47,404 nt of DNA from Escherichia coli (GTDB taxonomy: Bacteria > Pseudomonadota > Gammaproteobacteria > Enterobacterales > Enterobacteriaceae). The position numbers and the translations under genes were made by a program. How positions within the stretch are numbered: the stretch's first letter is position 1; each line of letters starts with the position of its first letter. The stretch lies in the NCBI RefSeq assembly GCF_003334335.1, contig NZ_QOWQ01000035.1, one strand, 5' to 3'. Shown in pieces: positions 20,243-30,481 of this stretch. The notes under the pieces are model-generated. The model saw nothing but the letters and a program-made list of their open reading frames with translations, was not told where the DNA came from and ran no database searches.

Positions 20243-21030
20243 ATGCAAACCATCACCATCGCCCCACCCAAGCGCAGCTGGTTCTCGCTTCTGAGCTGGG
20301 CCGTTGTACTCGCCGTGTTGGTCGTCTCGTGGCAGGGCGCGGAAATGGCCCCGCTTACGCTGATCAAAGACGGCGGCAACATGGCGACGTTCGCCGCCGA
20401 CTTCTTCCCGCCCGATTTCAGCCAGTGGCAGGATTACCTCACCGAAATGGCCGTCACGCTGCAAATCGCCGTCTGGGGCACCGCGCTGGCGGTGGTTCTC
20501 TCCATCCCCTTTGGCCTGATGAGCGCCGAAAACCTGGTGCCGTGGTGGGTTTACCAGCCCGTTCGCCGCCTGATGGACGCCTGCCGCGCCATTAACGAAA
20601 TGGTCTTCGCCATGCTGTTCGTGGTCGCCGTCGGCCTCGGCCCGTTCGCTGGCGTGCTGGCGTGCTGGCGCTGTTTATCCACACCACCGGCGTGCTCTCC
20701 AAGCTGCTTTCCGAAGCGGTGGAAGCGATTGAACCCGGCCCGGTGGAAGGCATTCGCGCCACCGGTGCCAACAAGCTCGAAGAGATCCTCTACGGCGTGC
20801 TGCCACAGGTGATGCCACTGCTGATCTCCTACTCCCTCTATCGCTTCGAATCCAACGTCCGCTCGGCGACCGTCGTCGGCATGGTCGGCGCAGGCGGGAT
20901 CGGCGTCACCCTGTGGGAAGCGATTCGCGGTTTCCAGTTCCAACAAACCTGCGCCCTGATGGTGCTTATCATCGTCACGGTCAGCCTGCTGGATTTCCTC
21001 TCTCAACGGTTGCGTAAGCACTTTATCTGA
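20243..21030 (+). pseudogene. phnE: phosphonate ABC transporter permease phnE, disrupted by frameshift within a tandem 8-bp repeat
   Basis: Permease reading frame is split between two overlapping ORFs (frame change near 20648-20671, where gctggcgt occurs twice then gctggcgc); known cryptic K-12 allele. Confidence 0.88.
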
Positions 21031-21050
21031 TAAGCGAGGCATTGATATCT

Positions 21051-21776
21051 ATGCACTTGTCTACACATCCGACCAGCTACCCAACACGCTATCAAGAGAT
21101 AGCCGCAAAACTTGAGCAGGAGCTTCGTCAACACTACCGCTGCGGCGACTATCTTCCCGCCGAGCAGCAACTGGCAGCGCGCTTTGAGGTGAATCGCCAC
21201 ACCCTGCGCCGCGCCATCGACCAACTGGTGGAAAAAGGCTGGGTACAGCGCCGTCAGGGCGTCGGCGTGCTGGTGCTGATGCGCCCGTTCGATTACCCGC
21301 TCAACGCCCAGGCGCGTTTTAGCCAGAATCTGCTGGATCAGGGCAGCCATCCCACCAGCGAAAAACTGCTTTCGGTATTGCGCCCCGCGTCCGGCCACGT
21401 CGCTGACGCACTGGGGATTACCGAGGGGGAGAACGTCATCCACCTGCGCACCCTGCGTCGTGTCAACGGCGTCGCGCTCTGTTTAATCGACCACTACTTC
21501 GCGGACCTCACCCTCTGGCCGACGCTGCAACGCTTCGACAGCGGCTCGCTGCACGATTTTCTGCGCGAGCAAACCGGAATTGCGCTGCGCCGCAGCCAGA
21601 CGCGGATCAGCGCCCGCCGCGCCCAGGCCAAAGAGTGCCAGCGTCTTGAAATCCCGAATATGTCGCCGCTGCTGTGCGTGCGCACCCTTAACCACCGTGA
21701 CGGTGAAAGCAGCCCGGCGGAGTACTCCGTCAGCCTGACGCGCGCCGACATGATTGAATTCACTATGGAGCACTGA
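21051..21776 (+). CDS. phnF: GntR-family repressor of the phn operon
   Basis: 241-aa ORF from MHLSTHPTSYPTRYQEIA; N-terminal GntR HTH, UTRA-like C-terminus. Confidence 0.93.
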   Translation: MHLSTHPTSYPTRYQEIAAKLEQELRQHYRCGDYLPAEQQLAARFEVNRHTLRRAIDQLVEKGWVQRRQGVGVLVLMRPFDYPLNAQARFSQNLLDQGSHPTSEKLLSVLRPASGHVADALGITEGENVIHLRTLRRVNGVALCLIDHYFADLTLWPTLQRFDSGSLHDFLREQTGIALRRSQTRISARRAQAKECQRLEIPNMSPLLCVRTLNHRDGESSPAEYSVSLTRADMIEFTMEH

Positions 21777-22229
21777 ATGCACGCAGATACCGCGACCCGC
21801 CAGCACTGGATGTCCGTGCTGGCGCACAGCCAACCGGCTGAACTGGCAGCACGCCTGAACGCGCTAAACATCACCGCCGACTATGAGGTGATCCGCGCCG
21901 CTGAAACTGGCCTGGTACAGATTCAGGCGCGGATGGGCGGCACCGGCGAACGTTTTTTTGCCGGCGACGCCACGCTGACCCGCGCCGCCGTGCGCCTGAC
22001 TGACGGCACGCTCGGCTACAGCTGGGTGCAGGGGCGTGATAAACAGCACGCCGAACGCTGCGCGCTGATTGACGCGCTGATGCAGCAATCTCGCCACTTT
22101 CAAAACTTATCAGAAACCCTTATTGCCCCGCTGGACGCTGACCGTATGGCACGCATTGCCGCACGCCAGGCCGAAGTGAACGCCAGCCGGGTCGACTTCT
22201 TTACGATGGTTCGCGGAGACAACGCATGA
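21777..22229 (+). CDS. phnG: C-P lyase core complex subunit PhnG
   Basis: 150-aa ORF; position and length in phn operon. Confidence 0.93.
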
Positions 22230-22810
22230 CCCTGGAAACCGCTTTTATGCTTCCCGTGCAGGATGCCCAGCACAGTTTTCGTCGCCTGTTAAAGGCCATG
22301 AGCGAGCCGGGCGTGATTGTCGCCCTGCATCAGCTCAAACGCGGCTGGCAACCGCTGAATATCGCCACCACCAGCGTGCTGCTGACGCTGGCCGATAACG
22401 ACACGCCGGTGTGGCTTTCTACCCCATTAAATAACGATATCGTCAACCAGAGCCTGCGTTTTCATACCAACGCGCCGCTGGTCAGCCAGCCGGAACAGGC
22501 GACCTTCGCGGTGACGGATGAGGCGATTTCCAGCGAACAGCTCAACGCCCTTTCCACCGGCACCGCCGTTGCGCCGGAAGCGGGTGCGACGCTGATTTTA
22601 CAGGTCGCCAGCCTGAGCGGCGGACGCATGTTGCGCCTTACTGGTGCGGGTATTGCCGAAGAACGAATGATCGCTCCGCAGCTGCCGGAGTGCATTCTGC
22701 ACGAACTCACCGAGCGCCCGCATCCGTTCCCGCTCGGCATCGACCTGATCCTGACCTGTGGCGAGCGCCTGCTGGCTATTCCGCGAACCACTCATGTGGA
22801 GGTGTGCTGA
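22226..22810 (+). CDS. phnH: C-P lyase core complex subunit PhnH
   Basis: 194-aa ORF; ATGA overlap with phnG stop. Confidence 0.93.
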
Positions 22811-23874
22811 TGTACGTTGCCGTGAAAGGGGGCGAGAAGGCGATCGACGCCGCCCACGCCCTGCAAGAGAGCCGACGCCGAGGCGATACCGATTTGCCCG
22901 AACTGAGCGTCGCCCAGATTGAACAGCAGCTTAACCTCGCGGTAGATCGCGTGATGACCGAAGGCGGCATTGCCGACCGCGAACTGGCGGCGCTGGCGCT
23001 GAAACAGGCCAGCGGCGATAACGTTGAAGCGATTTTCCTGCTGCGCGCCTACCGCACCACGTTGGCGAAGCTGGCGGTAAGCGAGCCGCTCGACACCACC
23101 GGGATGCGTCTCGAACGCCGTATCTCCGCCGTTTATAAAGACATTCCCGGCGGCCAGCTGCTTGGCCCAACCTACGACTACACCCATCGCCTGCTCGATT
23201 TTACCCTGCTGGCAAACGGCGAAGCGCCGACGCTGACCACCGCCGACAGCGAACAGCAGCCGTCGCCGCACGTTTTCAGCCTGCTGGCGCGTCAGGGGCT
23301 GGCGAAGTTTGAAGAGGATAGCGGCGCACAGCCGGATGACATCACCCGCACGCCGCCGGTTTACCCCTGCTCACGCTCCTCCCGTTTGCAGCAGTTGATG
23401 CGCGGCGACGAAGGCTATTTGCTGGCGCTGGCCTACTCCACCCAACGCGGTTACGGGCGCAATCACCCGTTCGCAGGCGAGATCCGCAGCGGCTATATCG
23501 ACGTGTCGATTGTGCCGGAAGAGCTGGGATTTGCGGTGAACGTCGGCGAACTGCTGATGACTGAGTGTGAAATGGTTAACGGTTTTATCGACCCGCCGGG
23601 TGAGCCGCCGCACTTCACGCGCGGCTACGGGCTGGTGTTCGGCATGAGCGAGCGCAAAGCGATGGCGATGGCGCTGGTCGACCGCGCTCTGCAAGCCCCG
23701 GAGTACGGCGAGCACGCGACAGGCCCGGCGCAGGATGAAGAGTTCGTGCTGGCACATGCCGACAACGTCGAAGCCGCAGGCTTTGTCTCACACCTCAAAC
23801 TCCCCCACTACGTCGATTTCCAGGCCGAACTGGAGCTACTCAAACGTCTGCAACAGGAGCAGAACCATGGCTAA
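22810..23874 (+). CDS. phnI: C-P lyase subunit PhnI (ribosyl-triphosphate forming nucleosidase)
   Basis: 354-aa ORF from [16 protein letters not shown]; ORF-track upstream extension rejected. Confidence 0.93.
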   Translation: MYVAVKGGEKAIDAAHALQESRRRGDTDLPELSVAQIEQQLNLAVDRVMTEGGIADRELAALALKQASGDNVEAIFLLRAYRTTLAKLAVSEPLDTTGMRLERRISAVYKDIPGGQLLGPTYDYTHRLLDFTLLANGEAPTLTTADSEQQPSPHVFSLLARQGLAKFEEDSGAQPDDITRTPPVYPCSRSSRLQQLMRGDEGYLLALAYSTQRGYGRNHPFAGEIRSGYIDVSIVPEELGFAVNVGELLMTECEMVNGFIDPPGEPPHFTRGYGLVFGMSERKAMAMALVDRALQAPEYGEHATGPAQDEEFVLAHADNVEAAGFVSHLKLPHYVDFQAELELLKRLQQEQNHG

Positions 23875-24712
23875 TCTGAGCGGCTACAACTTTGCCTACC
23901 TCGACGAGCAGACCAAACGCATGATCCGCCGCGCCATCTTAAAAGCGGTGGCGATCCCCGGTTATCAGGTGCCGTTTGGCGGGCGCGAGATGCCGATGCC
24001 GTACGGCTGGGGAACCGGCGGCATTCAGCTTACCGCCAGCGTGATTGGCGAAAGCGACGTGCTGAAGGTGATTGACCAGGGCGCGGATGACACCACCAAC
24101 GCCGTGTCGATTCGCAACTTCTTCAAGCGCGTGACCGGGGTAAACACCACGGAACGTACGGACGATGCGACGGTTATCCAGACGCGTCACCGCATCCCCG
24201 AAACGCCGCTGACCGAAGATCAGATAATTATCTTCCAGGTGCCAATCCCCGAGCCGCTGCGCTTTATCGAGCCGCGCGAAACGGAAACCCGCACCATGCA
24301 CGCGCTGGAAGAGTACGGCGTGATGCAGGTGAAACTGTATGAAGATATCGCCCGCTTCGGTCATATCGCCACCACCTACGCCTATCCGGTGAAGGTAAAT
24401 GGGCGCTACGTGATGGACCCGTCGCCGATCCCGAAATTCGATAACCCAAAAATGGACATGATGCCCGCCCTGCAACTGTTCGGCGCGGGGCGCGAGAAGC
24501 GCATCTATGCGGTGCCGCCGTTTACCCGCGTGGAAAGTCTCGATTTCGACGATCACCCGTTCACCGTTCAGCAGTGGGATGAGCCATGCGCCATCTGCGG
24601 ATCGACCCACAGCTATCTTGATGAAGTGGTGCTGGATGACGCCGGAAACCGCATGTTTGTCTGCTCCGATACCGATTATTGCCGCCAACAGAGCGAGGCA
24701 AAAAACCAATGA
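23867..24712 (+). CDS. phnJ: C-P lyase PhnJ (radical SAM-type, four-Cys cluster)
   Basis: 281-aa ORF from MANLSGYNFAYLDEQTKRMIRRA; C-terminal CxxCxxxxxC...C motif. Confidence 0.93.
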   Translation: MANLSGYNFAYLDEQTKRMIRRAILKAVAIPGYQVPFGGREMPMPYGWGTGGIQLTASVIGESDVLKVIDQGADDTTNAVSIRNFFKRVTGVNTTERTDDATVIQTRHRIPETPLTEDQIIIFQVPIPEPLRFIEPRETETRTMHALEEYGVMQVKLYEDIARFGHIATTYAYPVKVNGRYVMDPSPIPKFDNPKMDMMPALQLFGAGREKRIYAVPPFTRVESLDFDDHPFTVQQWDEPCAICGSTHSYLDEVVLDDAGNRMFVCSDTDYCRQQSEAKNQ

Positions 24713-25467
24713 ATCAACCGTTACTTTCGGTCAATAACCTGACCCACCTTTACGCGCCGGGCAAAGGCTTTAGCGATGTCTCTTTTGATTTATGGCCGGG
24801 GGAAGTGCTGGGCATTGTCGGGGAATCCGGCTCCGGGAAGACCACGCTGCTGAAGTCGATCTCCGCGCGCCTGACGCCGCAGCAGGGGGAAATTCACTAC
24901 GAGAACCGTTCGCTGTATGCAATGAGCGAGGCCGACCGCCGTCGCCTGCTGCGTACCGAATGGGGCGTGGTGCATCAGCATCCACTCGACGGCCTGCGCC
25001 GCCAGGTGTCGGCGGGCGGCAATATCGGCGAGCGGCTGATGGCGACCGGGGCACGTCATTACGGCGATATTCGTGCCACCGCGCAGAAGTGGCTGGAAGA
25101 GGTGGAGATTCCCGCCAACCGGATCGACGACCTGCCGACCACCTTTTCCGGCGGTATGCAGCAGCGTTTGCAGATTGCCCGCAACCTGGTGACGCATCCG
25201 AAGCTGGTGTTTATGGATGAACCGACCGGCGGGCTGGATGTGTCGGTGCAGGCCCGCCTGCTCGACCTGCTGCGCGGCCTGGTGGTGGAGCTGAACCTCG
25301 CGGTGGTGATTGTCACCCATGATTTAGGCGTCGCCCGCCTGCTGGCGGACCGTTTGCTGGTGATGAAGCAGGGGCAAGTGGTGGAGAGTGGGTTAACCGA
25401 CCGCGTGCTCGACGACCCGCATCATCCGTATACACAGCTGCTGGTGTCATCGGTTTTGCAGAATTGA
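24709..25467 (+). CDS. phnK: C-P lyase accessory ABC-type ATPase PhnK
   Basis: 252-aa ORF from [11 protein letters not shown]; Walker [10 protein letters not shown]. Confidence 0.93.
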
Positions 25468-25472
25468 GCCGG

Positions 25473-25556
<84 letters not shown>

Positions 25557-25577
25557 ACCCGAACCACGAGGCGAAAA

Positions 25578-26258
25578 ATGATTAACGTACAAAACGTCAG
25601 TAAAACCTTCATCCTGCACCAGCAAAACGGCGTGCGCCTGCCCGTCCTCAATCGCGCCTCGCTCACCGTCAACGCGGGCGAATGCGTGGTGCTCCACGGC
25701 CATTCCGGCAGCGGCAAATCAACTCTGCTACGCTCGCTGTACGCCAACTATCTGCCCGACGAAGGTCAAATCCAGATCAAACACGGTGACGAGTGGGTAG
25801 ACCTGGTCACCGCGCCAGCGCGCAAAGTGGTGGAAATCCGCAAAACCACCGTCGGCTGGGTGAGCCAGTTTCTGCGCGTCATCCCGCGTATCTCAGCACT
25901 GGAAGTGGTGATGCAGCCGCTGCTCGATACCGGCGTTCCGCGTGAAGCCTGCGCCGCTAAAGCCGCGCGTCTTCTCACCCGCCTGAACGTGCCGGAACGC
26001 CTGTGGCACCTGGCACCATCGACATTTTCCGGTGGCGAACAGCAGCGCGTCAACATCGCCCGCGGCTTTATCGTCGACTACCCCATTCTGCTGCTTGACG
26101 AACCTACCGCCTCGCTGGACGCCAAAAACAGCGCCGCGGTGGTGGAACTGATTCGCGAAGCCAAAACCCGTGGCGCAGCCATCGTAGGCATCTTCCATGA
26201 CGAAGCTGTACGTAATGACGTCGCCGACCGCCTGCACCCAATGGGAGCCTCTTCATGA
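25578..26258 (+). CDS. phnL: C-P lyase accessory ABC-type ATPase PhnL
   Basis: 226-aa ORF from [11 protein letters not shown]; Walker [10 protein letters not shown]. Confidence 0.93.
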
Positions 26259-27391
26259 TTATCAATAACGTTAAGCTGGTGCTGGAAAACGAGGTGGTAA
26301 GCGGTTCGCTGGAGGTGCAGAACGGCGAAATCCGCGCCTTTGCCGAAAGCCAGAGCCGCCTGCCGGAGGCGATGGACGGCGAAGGCGGCTGGCTGCTGCC
26401 GGGGCTGATTGAGCTGCATACCGATAATCTGGATAAATTCTTCACCCCGCGCCCGAAAGTTGACTGGCCTGCCCACTCGGCGATGAGCAGCCACGACGCG
26501 CTGATGGTGGCGAGCGGCATCACCACCGTACTGGATGCCGTGGCAATTGGCGACGTGCGCGACGGCGGCGATCGGCTGGAGAATCTGGAGAAGATGATCA
26601 ACGCCATCGAAGAGACGCAGAAACGCGGCGTCAACCGCGCCGAGCACCGTCTGCATCTGCGCTGCGAACTGCCGCATCACACCACGCTGCCGCTGTTTGA
26701 AAAACTGGTGCAGCGCGAGCCGGTGACGCTGGTGTCGCTGATGGACCACTCGCCGGGCCAGCGCCAGTTCGCCAACCGCGAGAAGTATCGCGAATATTAT
26801 CAGGGCAAATACTCCCTCACTGATGCGCAGATGCAGCAGTACGAAGAAGAGCAACTGGCGCTCGCCGCACGCTGGTCGCAGCCGAATCGCGAATCCATCG
26901 CCGCCCTGTGCCGCGCGCGAAAAATTGCGCTTGCCAGCCACGATGACGCCACCCACGCCCACGTTGCTGAATCTCACCAGCTTGGCAGCGTGATCGCCGA
27001 ATTTCCCACCACGTTCGAAGCGGCGGAAGCCTCGCGCAAGCATGGCATGAACGTGCTGATGGGCGCGCCGAATATTGTGCGCGGCGGCTCGCACTCCGGC
27101 AACGTGGCGGCCAGTGAACTGGCGCAGCTTGGCCTGCTGGATATCCTCTCTTCCGACTACTACCCCGCCAGCCTGCTCGATGCGGCATTTCGCGTCGCCG
27201 ATGACCAGAGCAACCGCTTTACGCTGCCGCAGGCGGTGAAGCTGGTGACTAAAAATCCAGCGCAGGCGCTTAATCTCCAGGATCGCGGGGTGATTGGCGA
27301 GGGCAAACGCGCCGACCTGGTGCTGGCGCATCGCAAGGACAATCATATTCATATCGACCACGTCTGGCGTCAGGGTAAAAGGGTGTTCTGA
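26255..27391 (+). CDS. phnM: PhnM, amidohydrolase-family RPnTP diphosphatase
   Basis: 378-aa [16 protein letters not shown]...; ATGA overlap with phnL. Confidence 0.93.
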
Positions 27392-27948
27392 TGATGGGAA
27401 AACTGATTTGGTTAATGGGGCCGTCCGGCTCCGGGAAAGACAGCCTGCTGGCGGAACTCCGCCTGCGGGAACAAACTCAGTTACTGGTGGCGCATCGCTA
27501 CATCACGCGCGATGCCAGCGCCGGAAGTGAAAACCATATCGCCCTGAGCGAGCAGGAGTTTTTTACCCGCGCGGGGCAAAATCTGTTGGCCTTAAGCTGG
27601 CACGCTAACGGTCTGTATTATGGCGTCGGCGTCGAGATTGATCTCTGGCTGCACGCCGGATTCGACGTGCTGGTCAACGGCTCACGCGCCCATCTGCCGC
27701 AGGCGCGGGCGCGCTATCAATCGGCGCTGCTGCCCGTCTGTTTACAGGTTTCGCCGGAGATCCTCCGCCAGCGCCTGGAAAACCGTGGCCGTGAAAACGC
27801 CAGTGAAATTAACGCCCGCCTGGCGCGCGCCGCCCGCTATACTCCACAGGATTGCCATACGCTCAACAATGACGGCAGCCTGCGCCAGTCGGTCGACACG
27901 CTGCTGACGCTGATCCATCAGAAGGAGAAACACCATGCCTGCTTGTGA
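27391..27948 (+). CDS. phnN: ribose 1,5-bisphosphate phosphokinase PhnN
   Basis: 185-aa ORF with P-loop GPSGSGKDS. Confidence 0.93.
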
Positions 27949-28369
27949 GCTTCGCCCGGCCACGCAGTACGACACCGACGCGTTTTACGCGCTGATTTGT
28001 GAGCTAAAACAGGCGGAGTTTGACCACCACGCGTTTCGCGTGGGTTTTAACGCCAATCTGCGCGACCCAAACATGCGCTACCATCTGGCGCTGCTTGATG
28101 GCGAAGTTGTCGGCATGATCGGCCTGCATTTGCAGTTTCATCTGCATCATGTCAACTGGATCGGCGAAATTCAGGAGTTGGTGGTAATGCCGCAGGCGCG
28201 CGGTCTGAACGTCGGCAGTAAGTTACTGGCGTGGGCAGAAGAAGAAGCCCGCCAGGCCGGGGCCGAAATGACCGAACTTTCGACCAACGTGAAGCGCCAC
28301 GACGCGCACCGTTTCTATCTGCGCGAAGGCTACGAGCAGAGCCACTTCCGCTTCACCAAGGCGCTGTAA
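27935..28369 (+). CDS. phnO: aminoalkylphosphonate N-acetyltransferase PhnO (GNAT)
   Basis: 144-aa ORF; GNAT-like. Confidence 0.92.
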
Positions 28370-28370
28370 C

Positions 28371-29129
28371 ATGAGCCTGACCCTCACGCTCACCGGCACC
28401 GGCGGCGCACAGGGCGTTCCGGCATGGGGCTGCGAGTGTGCGGCCTGCGCCAGAGCGCGGCGCTCGCCGCAGTATCGCCGCCAACCGTGCAGCGGCGTAG
28501 TGAAGTTTAACGACGCAATCACCCTGATCGACGCCGGGCTGCACGATCTCGCCGATCGCTGGTCGCCCGGATCGTTCCAGCAGTTTTTGCTGACGCATTA
28601 TCATATGGATCACGTCCAGGGGCTGTTTCCGCTGCGCTGGGGCGTTGGCGATCCGATCCCGGTTTACGGCCCGCCGGATGAACAGGGCTGCGACGATCTG
28701 TTTAAACATCCGGGCCTGCTTGATTTCAGCCACACGGTGGAACCGTTTGTGGTGTTTGATTTGCAGGGGTTACAGGTCACGCCCCTGCCGCTCAACCACT
28801 CAAAACTGACCTTCGGTTATCTGCTGGAAACGGCACACAGCCGGGTGGCGTGGCTGTCTGACACCGCAGGCTTGCCGGAAAAAACGCTGAAATTTTTACG
28901 CAATAATCAGCCGCAGGTAATGGTGATGGATTGCAGTCACCCGCCGCGCGCGGATGCACCGCGTAATCACTGTGATTTAAATACCGTGCTTGCGCTGAAT
29001 CAGGTTATCCGCTCGCCACGGGTGATTCTGACCCATATCAGCCACCAGTTTGATGCGTGGCTGATGGAAAACGCACTACCGTCAGGGTTTGAGGTGGGGT
29101 TTGATGGGATGGAGATTGGGGTGGCGTGA
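28371..29129 (+). CDS. phnP: phosphoribosyl 1,2-cyclic phosphate phosphodiesterase PhnP (metallo-beta-lactamase fold)
   Basis: 252-aa ORF with HxHxDH motif ([10 protein letters not shown]). Confidence 0.93.
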
Positions 29130-29151
29130 TGAGAGGGAATGTGCGCGCTGG

Positions 29152-29252
29152 CCCCCTCACCCTAACCCTCTCCCCAGAGGGGCGAGGGGACCGATTGTGC
29201 TCGATATTGAATATTGCGCTCGTTTTCTCCCTCTCCCCATTGGGGTGAGGGG
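29152..29252. repeat. two GC-rich palindromic elements (ccctcaccc..ccctctcccc aga ggggcgagggg and ctccctctcccc att ggggtgagggg)
   Basis: Nested inverted repeats read directly; first copy shares an 18-bp core with the element at 2042-2069; sits between convergent phnP and yjdP. Confidence 0.6.
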
Positions 29253-29275
29253 CGATGCCTGCTCCATACCCAACC

Positions 29276-29605
29276 TCATCGCCCATACTCATCTTCCATT
29301 CTCCGCTCTTCATCCTCCAGTTGCCGACGCTCCTGATCAAGCTGGCGCTGGCGATCGTCCAGCTGCCTGCGGCGATCTTCAAACTGGCGGCGGCGGTCGT
29401 CATATTGTCTGCGCCGATCGTCGCTCACTTCACGCTGCCAGCCGTCGTCGCGCGAATCTTCATAGTCTCGCCCACGGTCAGGGTTATAAGCGTCATTAAT
29501 CGCCTGCTGAATATTGCCAATGGTGTCGTCGATAATATCGGCCTGGGCCGGAACGGTGGACAGCGTGAGCAGGGTGAATAAAAGAAATAGCGGAAAGCGT
29601 TTCAT
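29276..29605 (-). CDS. yjdP: small secreted protein YjdP with Arg/Asp/Gln/Glu-rich repeats
   Basis: 109-aa ORF with signal peptide (MKRFPLFLLFTLLTLSTVPAQA) and repeated DDRRRQ/EDRRRQ blocks. Confidence 0.88.
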   Translation of the reverse strand: MKRFPLFLLFTLLTLSTVPAQADIIDDTIGNIQQAINDAYNPDRGRDYEDSRDDGWQREVSDDRRRQYDDRRRQFEDRRRQLDDRQRQLDQERRQLEDEERRMEDEYGR

Positions 29606-29673
29606 TAGCCAACCTCAAAAAGAAACTCTATCCACATTAATCATTACTCATCCATGCAAGTAGTGGATGAATC

Positions 29674-30123
29674 TCAATTTCTCCGCTGCTCTATTGCCGT
29701 AATCGCCTCCACGCGTTGTTGATGACGACCGCCTTCGTACTGTGCGCCCAGCCACGCATCCACAATCATTTTTGCCAGTTCGAGGCCAACCACTCGTGAA
29801 CCAAAAGCCAGCACGTTGGTGTCGTTATGCTGCCGCGAAAGTTGCGCGGAATAAGGTTCGCTACAGACGACCGCGCGAATTCCGGCAAACTTGTTCGCCG
29901 CTATCGAAATACCGACGCCAGTACCACAAATCAAAATCCCGCCATCAACCTCTCCGCCAGCAACAGCCAGTGCGACTTGACTGGCGTAATGTGGATAATC
30001 AGTACGCTCTGACGACCAGGTTCCTTTATCAATCACTTCAACGCCACGCTCAACTAAATGTGCCACTATTTCATGTTTTAAAATGAAACCGACATGATCA
30101 CAGCCAAATGCAATCTTTTTCAT
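29674..30123 (-). CDS. rpiB: ribose-5-phosphate / allose-6-phosphate isomerase B
   Basis: 149-aa ORF MKKIAFGCDHVGFILKHEIV... (RpiB/LacAB family). Confidence 0.95.
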   Translation of the reverse strand: MKKIAFGCDHVGFILKHEIVAHLVERGVEVIDKGTWSSERTDYPHYASQVALAVAGGEVDGGILICGTGVGISIAANKFAGIRAVVCSEPYSAQLSRQHNDTNVLAFGSRVVGLELAKMIVDAWLGAQYEGGRHQQRVEAITAIEQRRN

Positions 30124-30481
30124 TCATCTTCCCCGTCCGTGCAAAACTTCACAATCAAAAAACATTTGTGATGTTAATGAATTAAAAACACCCAAAATCG
30201 ATGAATTACGCCTTCCTGATCTGTTTTACAGAGTTACATCTGACAGCGCAATAGCGTTAAAGACACTCACCATCCAGCAACATCTATCATCTAAAAAACC
30301 AGAAAAACAAATAACATCATGTTTTTAAACTAATTAAATGAAATAAAATTTTAAGCCACTCGCCATTGTTCACAATAAAATAAACTTTATAAATTTTATT
30401 TTTTTGTGAAGTCGCCAGCATCTTTTCTGTTCTTGCTGTGGTGATATAGTGGCGTCTTCAATTCAAGGACAAGAGAACGTG

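Follow-up and report, generated by a model that had tools for sequence, protein, structure and literature searches.

A known, unstable BoxC repeat pair between the convergent phnP and yjdP genes of Escherichia coli and its probable relation to mRNA 3' ends

The phnP-yjdP gap and its hairpins

The window analysed here is a stretch of 47,404 nucleotides from Escherichia coli (contig NZ_QOWQ01000035.1), in which phnP (plus strand) ends at 29129 and yjdP (minus strand) occupies 29276-29605. The two genes converge on a gap of 146 bp (29130-29275), as the first-pass annotation of this region had stated. Window coordinates were converted to MG1655 positions by subtracting them from 4343473, a conversion supported by an 801-bp stretch of the window that is the exact reverse complement of NC_000913.3 4313900-4314700. 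Features of the gap are as follows (window position, strand, description).

29130..29275, no strand: whole phnP-yjdP intergenic cassette (146 bp), consisting of a type-A BoxC copy, a spacer and a decayed type-B BoxC copy
29138..29152, plus: left flank AATGTGCGCGCTGGC, like the CAGCGCGCAC tail that adjoins the hrpB-mrcB and ilvC-ppiC BoxC copies
29152..29175, minus (yjdP-sense strand): canonical G-quadruplex motif, four runs of three or more G with loops of 1-7 nt
29153..29165, plus: left arm of the outer pair, the third block of the type-A copy, pairing with 29240-29252
29153..29188, minus: 36-nt BoxC/PIT/TMECO core, type A 'mm', CCCTCGCCCCTCTGGGGAGAGGGTTAGGGTGAGGGG, identical to TMECO #22 and within HPGQ 51
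29153..29209, plus: 57-bp BoxC unit, the core plus its tail (GACCGATTGTGCTCG...), the part that recurs elsewhere in the genome
29166..29189, plus: hairpin 1, CCCTCTCCCC-AGA-GGGGCGAGGGG, GC stem of 10 bp, a single T.C mismatch, loop of 3 nt
29179..29185, plus: GGGGCGA direct repeat, left copy, one end point of the 70-bp deletion in the O157:H7/O55:H7 allele
29192..29200, plus: predicted phn operon mRNA 3' end, placed 4-12 nt beyond hairpin 1 on the model of seven other genes
29222..29228, plus: GTTTTCT, conserved 5' flank of type-B BoxC copies, upstream of hairpin 2
29229..29252, plus: hairpin 2, CCCTCTCCCC-ATT-GGGGTGAGGGG, one T.T mismatch
29240..29252, plus: right arm of the outer pair, the last G block of the type-B remnant
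29247..29253, plus: GGGGCGA direct repeat, right copy, the other end point of the 70-bp deletion

The plus strand therefore reads from the left flank AATGTGCGCGCTGGC through the type-A copy in antisense and its tail GACCGATTGTGCTCG to a short spacer, followed by GTTTTCT, a two-block type-B remnant and a right tail (CGATGCCTGCTCC). The likeness of the left flank to the CAGCGCGCAC tails beside the hrpB-mrcB and ilvC-ppiC copies suggests that it probably belongs to the BoxC element as well.

Two hairpin-forming elements framed by an outer inverted pair had been described in this gap, and all three were recovered, with loops AGA and ATT for the two hairpins and arms of 13 nt that are 92% complementary for the outer pair. 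Their description as palindromes holds for the hairpins as such and fails for perfect pairing, as each stem carries one central mismatch. The nesting was also borne out, the minimum-energy fold of the plus strand placing both hairpins within the outer pair. As isolated RNAs hairpins 1 and 2 had folding energies of -17.2 and -18.2 kcal/mol, respectively, while the RNA of the whole gap folded at -63.8 kcal/mol (z = -3.35) on the plus strand and -64.9 kcal/mol (z = -3.03) on the minus strand relative to shuffled controls. The hairpin pattern gave six matches (three sites on both strands) against none in 100 dinucleotide shuffles.

A degenerate BoxC-like two-block hairpin was seen in the melR-melA divergent regulatory region (window 2043-2067), reading GTTTTCA-CCCTCTTCCC-AGA-GGGGCGAGGGG-ACTC on the minus strand and lying about 80-100 bp upstream of the melR start (melA 507-1862 minus, melR 2145-3053 plus). 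A scan of the window with the REP consensus returned five matches and none in 29130-29275. Three of the REP elements were spaced at exactly 100 bp (17389-17622), another was at 25474-25507 inside the estimated span of the phn operon (about 18,200-29,129) and the last was near the window end (47082-47115). An Rfam scan of the phnP-yjdP region returned chance matches only, with E-values of 4.5 to 8.1 and scores far under the gathering thresholds.

The neighbour of yjdP (window about 29606-30450) varied by strain, making the region that adjoins the repeat a variable spot. In K-12 it is rpiB (450 bp), in strain 504239 a shorter gene of the RpiB/LacA/LacB family (318 bp) followed by yjcS, in O157:H7 a hybrid histidine kinase/response-regulator gene and in XJ6-3 an N-acetyltransferase gene.

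BoxC identity and the history of the gap

The palindromes of the gap consist of a copy of the dispersed repeat BoxC and a decayed partner copy, and the element is already known. The minus strand at 29153-29188 is TMECO #22 in both sequence and position (MG1655 4314285-4314320; Holder 2015, Table 1), and the same copy appears in Kaplan 2016 as HPGQ 51 of group HPG1, sited 'yjdP >>> ... <<< phnP'. The repeat family and this exact copy are thus catalogued in two Nucleic Acids Research papers, and the distribution of the family is already published. Holder 2015 treats TMECO, BoxC (Bergler 1992) and the PIT elements described by Hoyne & Maher (2000, 2002) as the same repeat, and the fabI (envM) copy, where BoxC was named, has the same 36 nt as the phnP-yjdP core. 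The three-block family consensus (CCCTCNCCC-N3-6-GGGNGAGGG-N3-GGGNGAGGG) matched the window a single time, at 29154-29188 on the minus strand, with 0 matches expected by chance.

Flanking sequences agreed with this assignment, and all 23 K-12 BoxC copies have the flank consensus found at phnP-yjdP. Type A copies have an upstream GYGCNC-N4-5-GGTC in common (GAGCACAATCGGTC at phnP-yjdP), an extended consensus that the tail of the 57-bp unit fits, while type B copies have GTTTTCT upstream and CATCAGCGCGCAC downstream. The G-rich strand of the type-A copy is the yjdP-sense strand. Hairpin 2 has two of the three consensus blocks in K-12 and does not match the three-block consensus, the middle block of 12 bp (GGGGAGAGGGCC) being missing. 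In strain MLI106K3, which has a gap of 158 bp, the type-B copy in second position is complete (CCCTCGCCCCATTGGGGAGAGGGCCGGGGTGAGGGGC), and hairpin 2 is therefore a decayed member of the family. The nested palindromes follow from the layout of BoxC, in which a C block and a G block flank a loop and another G block comes three bases later; the third block of the A copy can base-pair with the final block of its B partner. The structure of the gap is a product of the block architecture of a dispersed repeat and is not locus-specific.

None of the 5426 complete E. coli genomes was without the 57-bp unit, which had a median of 16 places per genome (78,336 places on chromosomes and 37 of 78,373 on plasmids), and the K-12 copies that were fetched were all intergenic. 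At least eight alleles of the phnP-yjdP gap were found (158, 146, 143 (inverted), 95, 76, 42, 34 and 27 bp). Shares were estimated from a rank-spaced sample of 60 of 5,432 matching records together with fetched examples, and are given below by gap length.

146/158 bp: two hairpins; about 57%
143 bp: B and A copies oriented oppositely (cassette inverted); 23 E. coli genomes
95 bp: 63-bp deletion between G blocks, leaving a single nested palindrome with perfect pairing (-56 kcal/mol); about 3%
76 bp: O157:H7/O55:H7, hairpin 1 destroyed by a 70-bp deletion that ends in the GGGGCGA repeats; about 7%
42 bp: without hairpin; about 2%
34 bp: without hairpin; about 12%
27 bp: without hairpin; about 18%

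A hairpin-free gap (27-42 bp) was accordingly present in about 32% of E. coli genomes. The end points of the 12-, 63- and 70-bp deletions were within the repeated G blocks, and in Escherichia sp. E1V33 the interior between the outer arms was inverted relative to K-12. In this strain phnP was nearly deleted, some 40 nt of it being left immediately after phnO, and in E. coli 2018-06-4CC, which carries the 42-bp gap allele, yjdP was annotated as a pseudogene with an internal stop. A different convergent gene (...KQQPTQ*) with its own hairpin followed yjdP in E. whittamii and in E. coli SCPM-O-B-8794; phnP was not found within 1.5 kb in either, and the phn operon may be deleted there.

In Citrobacter and Trabulsiella phnP and yjdP were still convergent, with a gap of 0-3 bp or inserts of 69-871 bp, and no BoxC blocks were found at these junctions. 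Several Citrobacter species had in common an insert of about 610 bp at the junction and REP-like repeats were seen there in C. koseri and C. portucalensis, the same gap being filled by different elements in different genera. Because the cassette is absent from the Citrobacter and Trabulsiella junctions, it probably entered in the Escherichia lineage, and later erosion and flipping may have proceeded via recombination or slippage between its own near-identical blocks. This history of insertion and decay, including its direction, is what we infer from the sequences of the alleles; the same type of instability has been described across the whole family (Holder 2015). The 27-bp allele, taken here as phylogroup-B2-type (a tentative label), was considered as a virgin empty site and was rejected as it retains GGTAGGGGCCGGCGCGGG, a sequence similar to the last G block and the BoxC tail together. 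Since this allele keeps a BoxC-like flank, a clean empty site was not found within E. coli.

A recently mobile MITE-like element whose insertion made the cassette would account for a dispersed, multi-copy repeat that differs in presence between strains and is absent from the phnP-yjdP junction of the outgroups. We regard this origin as improbable. Apart from the blocks themselves there were no terminal inverted repeats, a target-site duplication around the cassette was looked for and none was convincing, and a clean empty site was lacking as noted. The repeat is almost never on plasmids, and we know of no dedicated transposase for BoxC. The loci of the family are furthermore mostly common to strains (62 conserved loci in 56 strains; Holder 2015).

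The G-rich strand also raises the possibility of regulatory non-B DNA, in which a triplex or a G-quadruplex/hairpin switch would serve replication, transcription or protein binding. The G-quadruplex motif at 29152-29175 is the sole one within the 47-kb window, and single-stranded oligonucleotides of the family form a triplex (Holder 2015) and a G-quadruplex or hairpin (Kaplan 2016) in vitro. Against such a role, no triplex was seen in double-stranded DNA and no protection in in vivo DMS footprinting (Holder 2015), and there was neither an association with gene function nor a transcription-factor motif. Hairpin 2 is without the third block, so that neither a triplex nor a G-quadruplex is possible there, and a non-B DNA function for the cassette appears very improbable.

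Transcript 3' ends at BoxC copies

It had been proposed from the sequence that the structure could terminate transcription from both directions. Part of this proposal stands, as 3' ends often occur at BoxC hairpins elsewhere in the genome (below), while the canonical signals of intrinsic termination are absent from the gap. The GC-rich stem-loop of an intrinsic terminator is present. No U-run followed the stems on either strand of the gap, where the 10 nt after the stems (ACCGATTGTG and CGATGCCTGC on the plus strand, AGAAAACGAG and TTAGGGTGAG on the minus strand) held at most three T, and a consensus terminator scan of the gap found no terminator-like site. The sole T-run, GTTTTCT, is upstream of hairpin 2, and the minus strand reads the hairpin and then AGAAAAC; being on the wrong side for both directions, the run is not a terminator tail. 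The arrangement of a bidirectional terminator, with an A-tract 5' and a U-tract 3' of one hairpin, was likewise not found. The cassette is thus not a canonical intrinsic terminator.

Public 3'-end maps were compared with the BoxC copies, namely the Term-seq data of Adams 2021 and the TRS datasets (Nat Commun 2023, PMC10687069), in which termination and processing are not separable. The TRS termini were as follows (gene, MG1655 position, distance past the hairpin, copy).

hrpB, 164638, +7 nt, type A in phnP orientation
hemB, 388660, +4 nt, type A in phnP orientation
alx, 3239706, +8 nt, type A in phnP orientation
aaeR, 3390541, +12 nt, type A in phnP orientation
frlR, 3504903, +11 nt, type A in phnP orientation
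pstA, 3908485, +10 nt, type A in phnP orientation
tldD, 3390499, +8 nt, type A in opposite orientation
ppiC, 3959463-7, +4 to +8 nt, type B in sense

The primary 3' end of lldD (3781065) was located 4 nt past a BoxC hairpin read in the phnP orientation (Adams 2021), and seven genes in this orientation (hrpB, hemB, alx, aaeR, frlR, lldD and pstA) therefore end 4-12 nt past the hairpin. Where a type-A copy is read in the phnP orientation, all of the expressed genes that could be checked had a terminus past the hairpin, seven of them within 12 nt and tusA 38 nt beyond its BoxC. Transcripts of adk read through their BoxC to a canonical terminator at 497941, 63 nt further, and together with the tusA end this indicates that the BoxC hairpin is not always the end point. 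The gcvP transcript ends at its own terminator before the repeat. Hairpin energies at phnP-yjdP equalled those at lldD (-18.4 kcal/mol) and ppiC (-17.5 kcal/mol). Ten other BoxC loci had no entry in the Adams Term-seq lists, several of them being present in the TRS lists.

In the fepB leader, a 3' end backed by very many Term-seq reads (MG1655 624680, minus) lies 4 nt before TMECO #8; it was rejected as an end made by BoxC, as its position before the element is unlike that expected of a hairpin stop. The last column of TRS supplementary file 6 (PMC10687069) lists positions for hrpB (164551), alx (3239603), adk (497850) and tusA (3608702) that are inside or at the start of the 5' arm of the BoxC hairpin. 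Should they be RNA ends, cleavage at the GUUUUCU flank may account for them.

Among the entries that could be searched, no 3' end was found for phnP, yjdP or positions 43142xx/43143xx in the Adams 2021, SMRT-Cappable-seq and TRS supplements, a result that is uninformative as the genes are essentially silent there; the empty gap is presumably due to both genes being silent in the media used.

These data bear on a bidirectional, Rho-independent terminator or insulator that would halt RNA polymerase between the phn operon and yjdP. Very stable GC hairpins on both strands are in keeping with it, as is the site between convergent genes, a setting found for 6 of the 16 HPG1 copies. The convergent aaeR and tldD genes have termini on either side of one BoxC, and hemB, which is convergent with tauD, ends at a BoxC, with no tauD terminus listed. 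Weighing against it, in addition to the missing U-tracts and the misplaced T-run, the equivalent lldD site is marked in Adams 2021 as a region of Rho termination, and its intrinsic-terminator score of 1.3 falls short of the 3.0 from which intrinsic termination is suggested. One copy is read through by adk transcripts and another, with an identical 36-nt core, is located inside the pst operon between pstA and pstB. Holder 2015 states twice that PIT elements were without promoter or terminator activity in the reporter assays of Hoyne & Maher 2002. The hairpins are also missing in about a third of the strains and in all outgroups examined, and a hairpin insulator is therefore not required for the convergent pair. 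The suggestion that the structure terminates from both sides and insulates the long phn operon from yjdP thus finds partial support at most, and intrinsic termination at the gap is considered a poor explanation with little chance of being correct. The cassette is likely not selected as a terminator for phnP and yjdP, any effect on their transcripts being incidental.

The repeat might instead be neutral or selfish and without effect on the flanking transcripts, its hairpins tolerated in a safe site between gene ends. The cassette is dispensable in the hairpin-free strains, the Citrobacter junction is occupied by other repeats (REP) or inserts, and no function for the family came out of three published studies. 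The termini past type-A hairpins described above run counter to this, since they lead to the expectation of some 3'-end effect once the phn operon is transcribed, and we consider full neutrality unlikely.

Proposed role and comparison with known systems

We favour with reasonable confidence the reading that the cassette is a known, unstable BoxC repeat and not a terminator selected for this gene pair, with hairpins that probably define and protect mRNA 3' ends. Marking of the 3' ends of both the phnP and yjdP transcripts is plausible because termini occur at BoxC hairpins elsewhere, including at the convergent aaeR/tldD pair; 3'-end formation at phnP-yjdP itself is what we infer by analogy with those loci. 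RNA from each strand would carry very stable GC hairpins that block trimming by 3'-to-5' exonucleases, possibly together with Rho-dependent termination. The route to the 3' end may accordingly be hairpin protection, Rho-linked termination or both, and would not be canonical intrinsic termination. With stable hairpins stopping the trimming, the phn operon mRNA should end a few nt past hairpin 1, at about window 29192-29200 by comparison with the seven genes, and the yjdP mRNA would end at or just past either hairpin. The phnP-direction RNA before the stem is C-rich and G-poor (17 C and 2 G in 27 nt), a composition that, speculatively, suits the loading of Rho.

A broader and more tentative proposal, which we would at present hold to be somewhat doubtful, is that BoxC type-A copies in general form the 3' ends of E. 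coli mRNAs in an orientation-dependent manner, with a probable link to Rho. RNA of the phnP orientation would present a hairpin preceded by a leader rich in C and poor in G, and the role may have been overlooked owing to the negative reporter assays of 2002. Were this true, the phnP-yjdP pair would set the 3' ends of both convergent transcripts, and the deletion and inversion alleles would alter the 3' UTRs of phnP and yjdP, possibly with effects on stability or antisense overlap.

The element itself is of little importance. The locus provides a clear natural allelic series of the erosion and flipping of a BoxC pair via its own blocks, comprising the intact pair, the K-12 form, the fused palindrome, truncations, the inverted form and loss. 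Comparison of the 3'-end maps with the catalogue of copies suggests that the BoxC family is REP-like at the RNA level, a role that was not reported in Holder 2015 or Kaplan 2016, and if it is true then strain differences at BoxC loci would be 3' UTR differences. The allelic series and the consistency with which mapped mRNA 3' ends fall at BoxC hairpins are only mildly new.

Relative to the rest of the BoxC family, unit 1 at phnP-yjdP has the same three-block core, flanks and intergenic position and is a catalogued member. Its pairing with an inverted type-B copy is seen at five other K-12 loci; the phnP-yjdP pair is head-to-head, like lldD-trmL, while the hrpB-mrcB, ygfF-gcvP, alx-sstT and fepB-entC pairs are tail-to-tail. 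The partner at phnP-yjdP, without its middle block, falls outside the family consensus in K-12. Bidirectional intrinsic terminators resemble the cassette in having a GC-rich hairpin common to two convergent units, and the 3' ends on both sides of one BoxC at aaeR/tldD are a further likeness; BoxC differs in being without the succession of A-tract, hairpin and U-tract and in the Rho-linked scoring of the equivalent lldD site.

The REP/BIME elements are similar to BoxC in being dispersed extragenic palindromes that favour gene 3' ends, and the RNA hairpins of both can set or stabilise the 3' ends of upstream mRNAs. The BoxC sequence is unrelated, numbers about 16 copies in a genome where REP has hundreds, and has a three-block form with triplex and G-quadruplex potential. 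Stem-loops that stop the 3' trimming of Rho-terminated transcripts also offer a parallel, as ends there fall a few nt past a stable stem without a U-tract and the BoxC site at lldD carries a Rho-termination flag. The phnP-yjdP stem-loop differs from these in coming from a repeat family instead of a locus-specific sequence, and the part played by Rho is putative.
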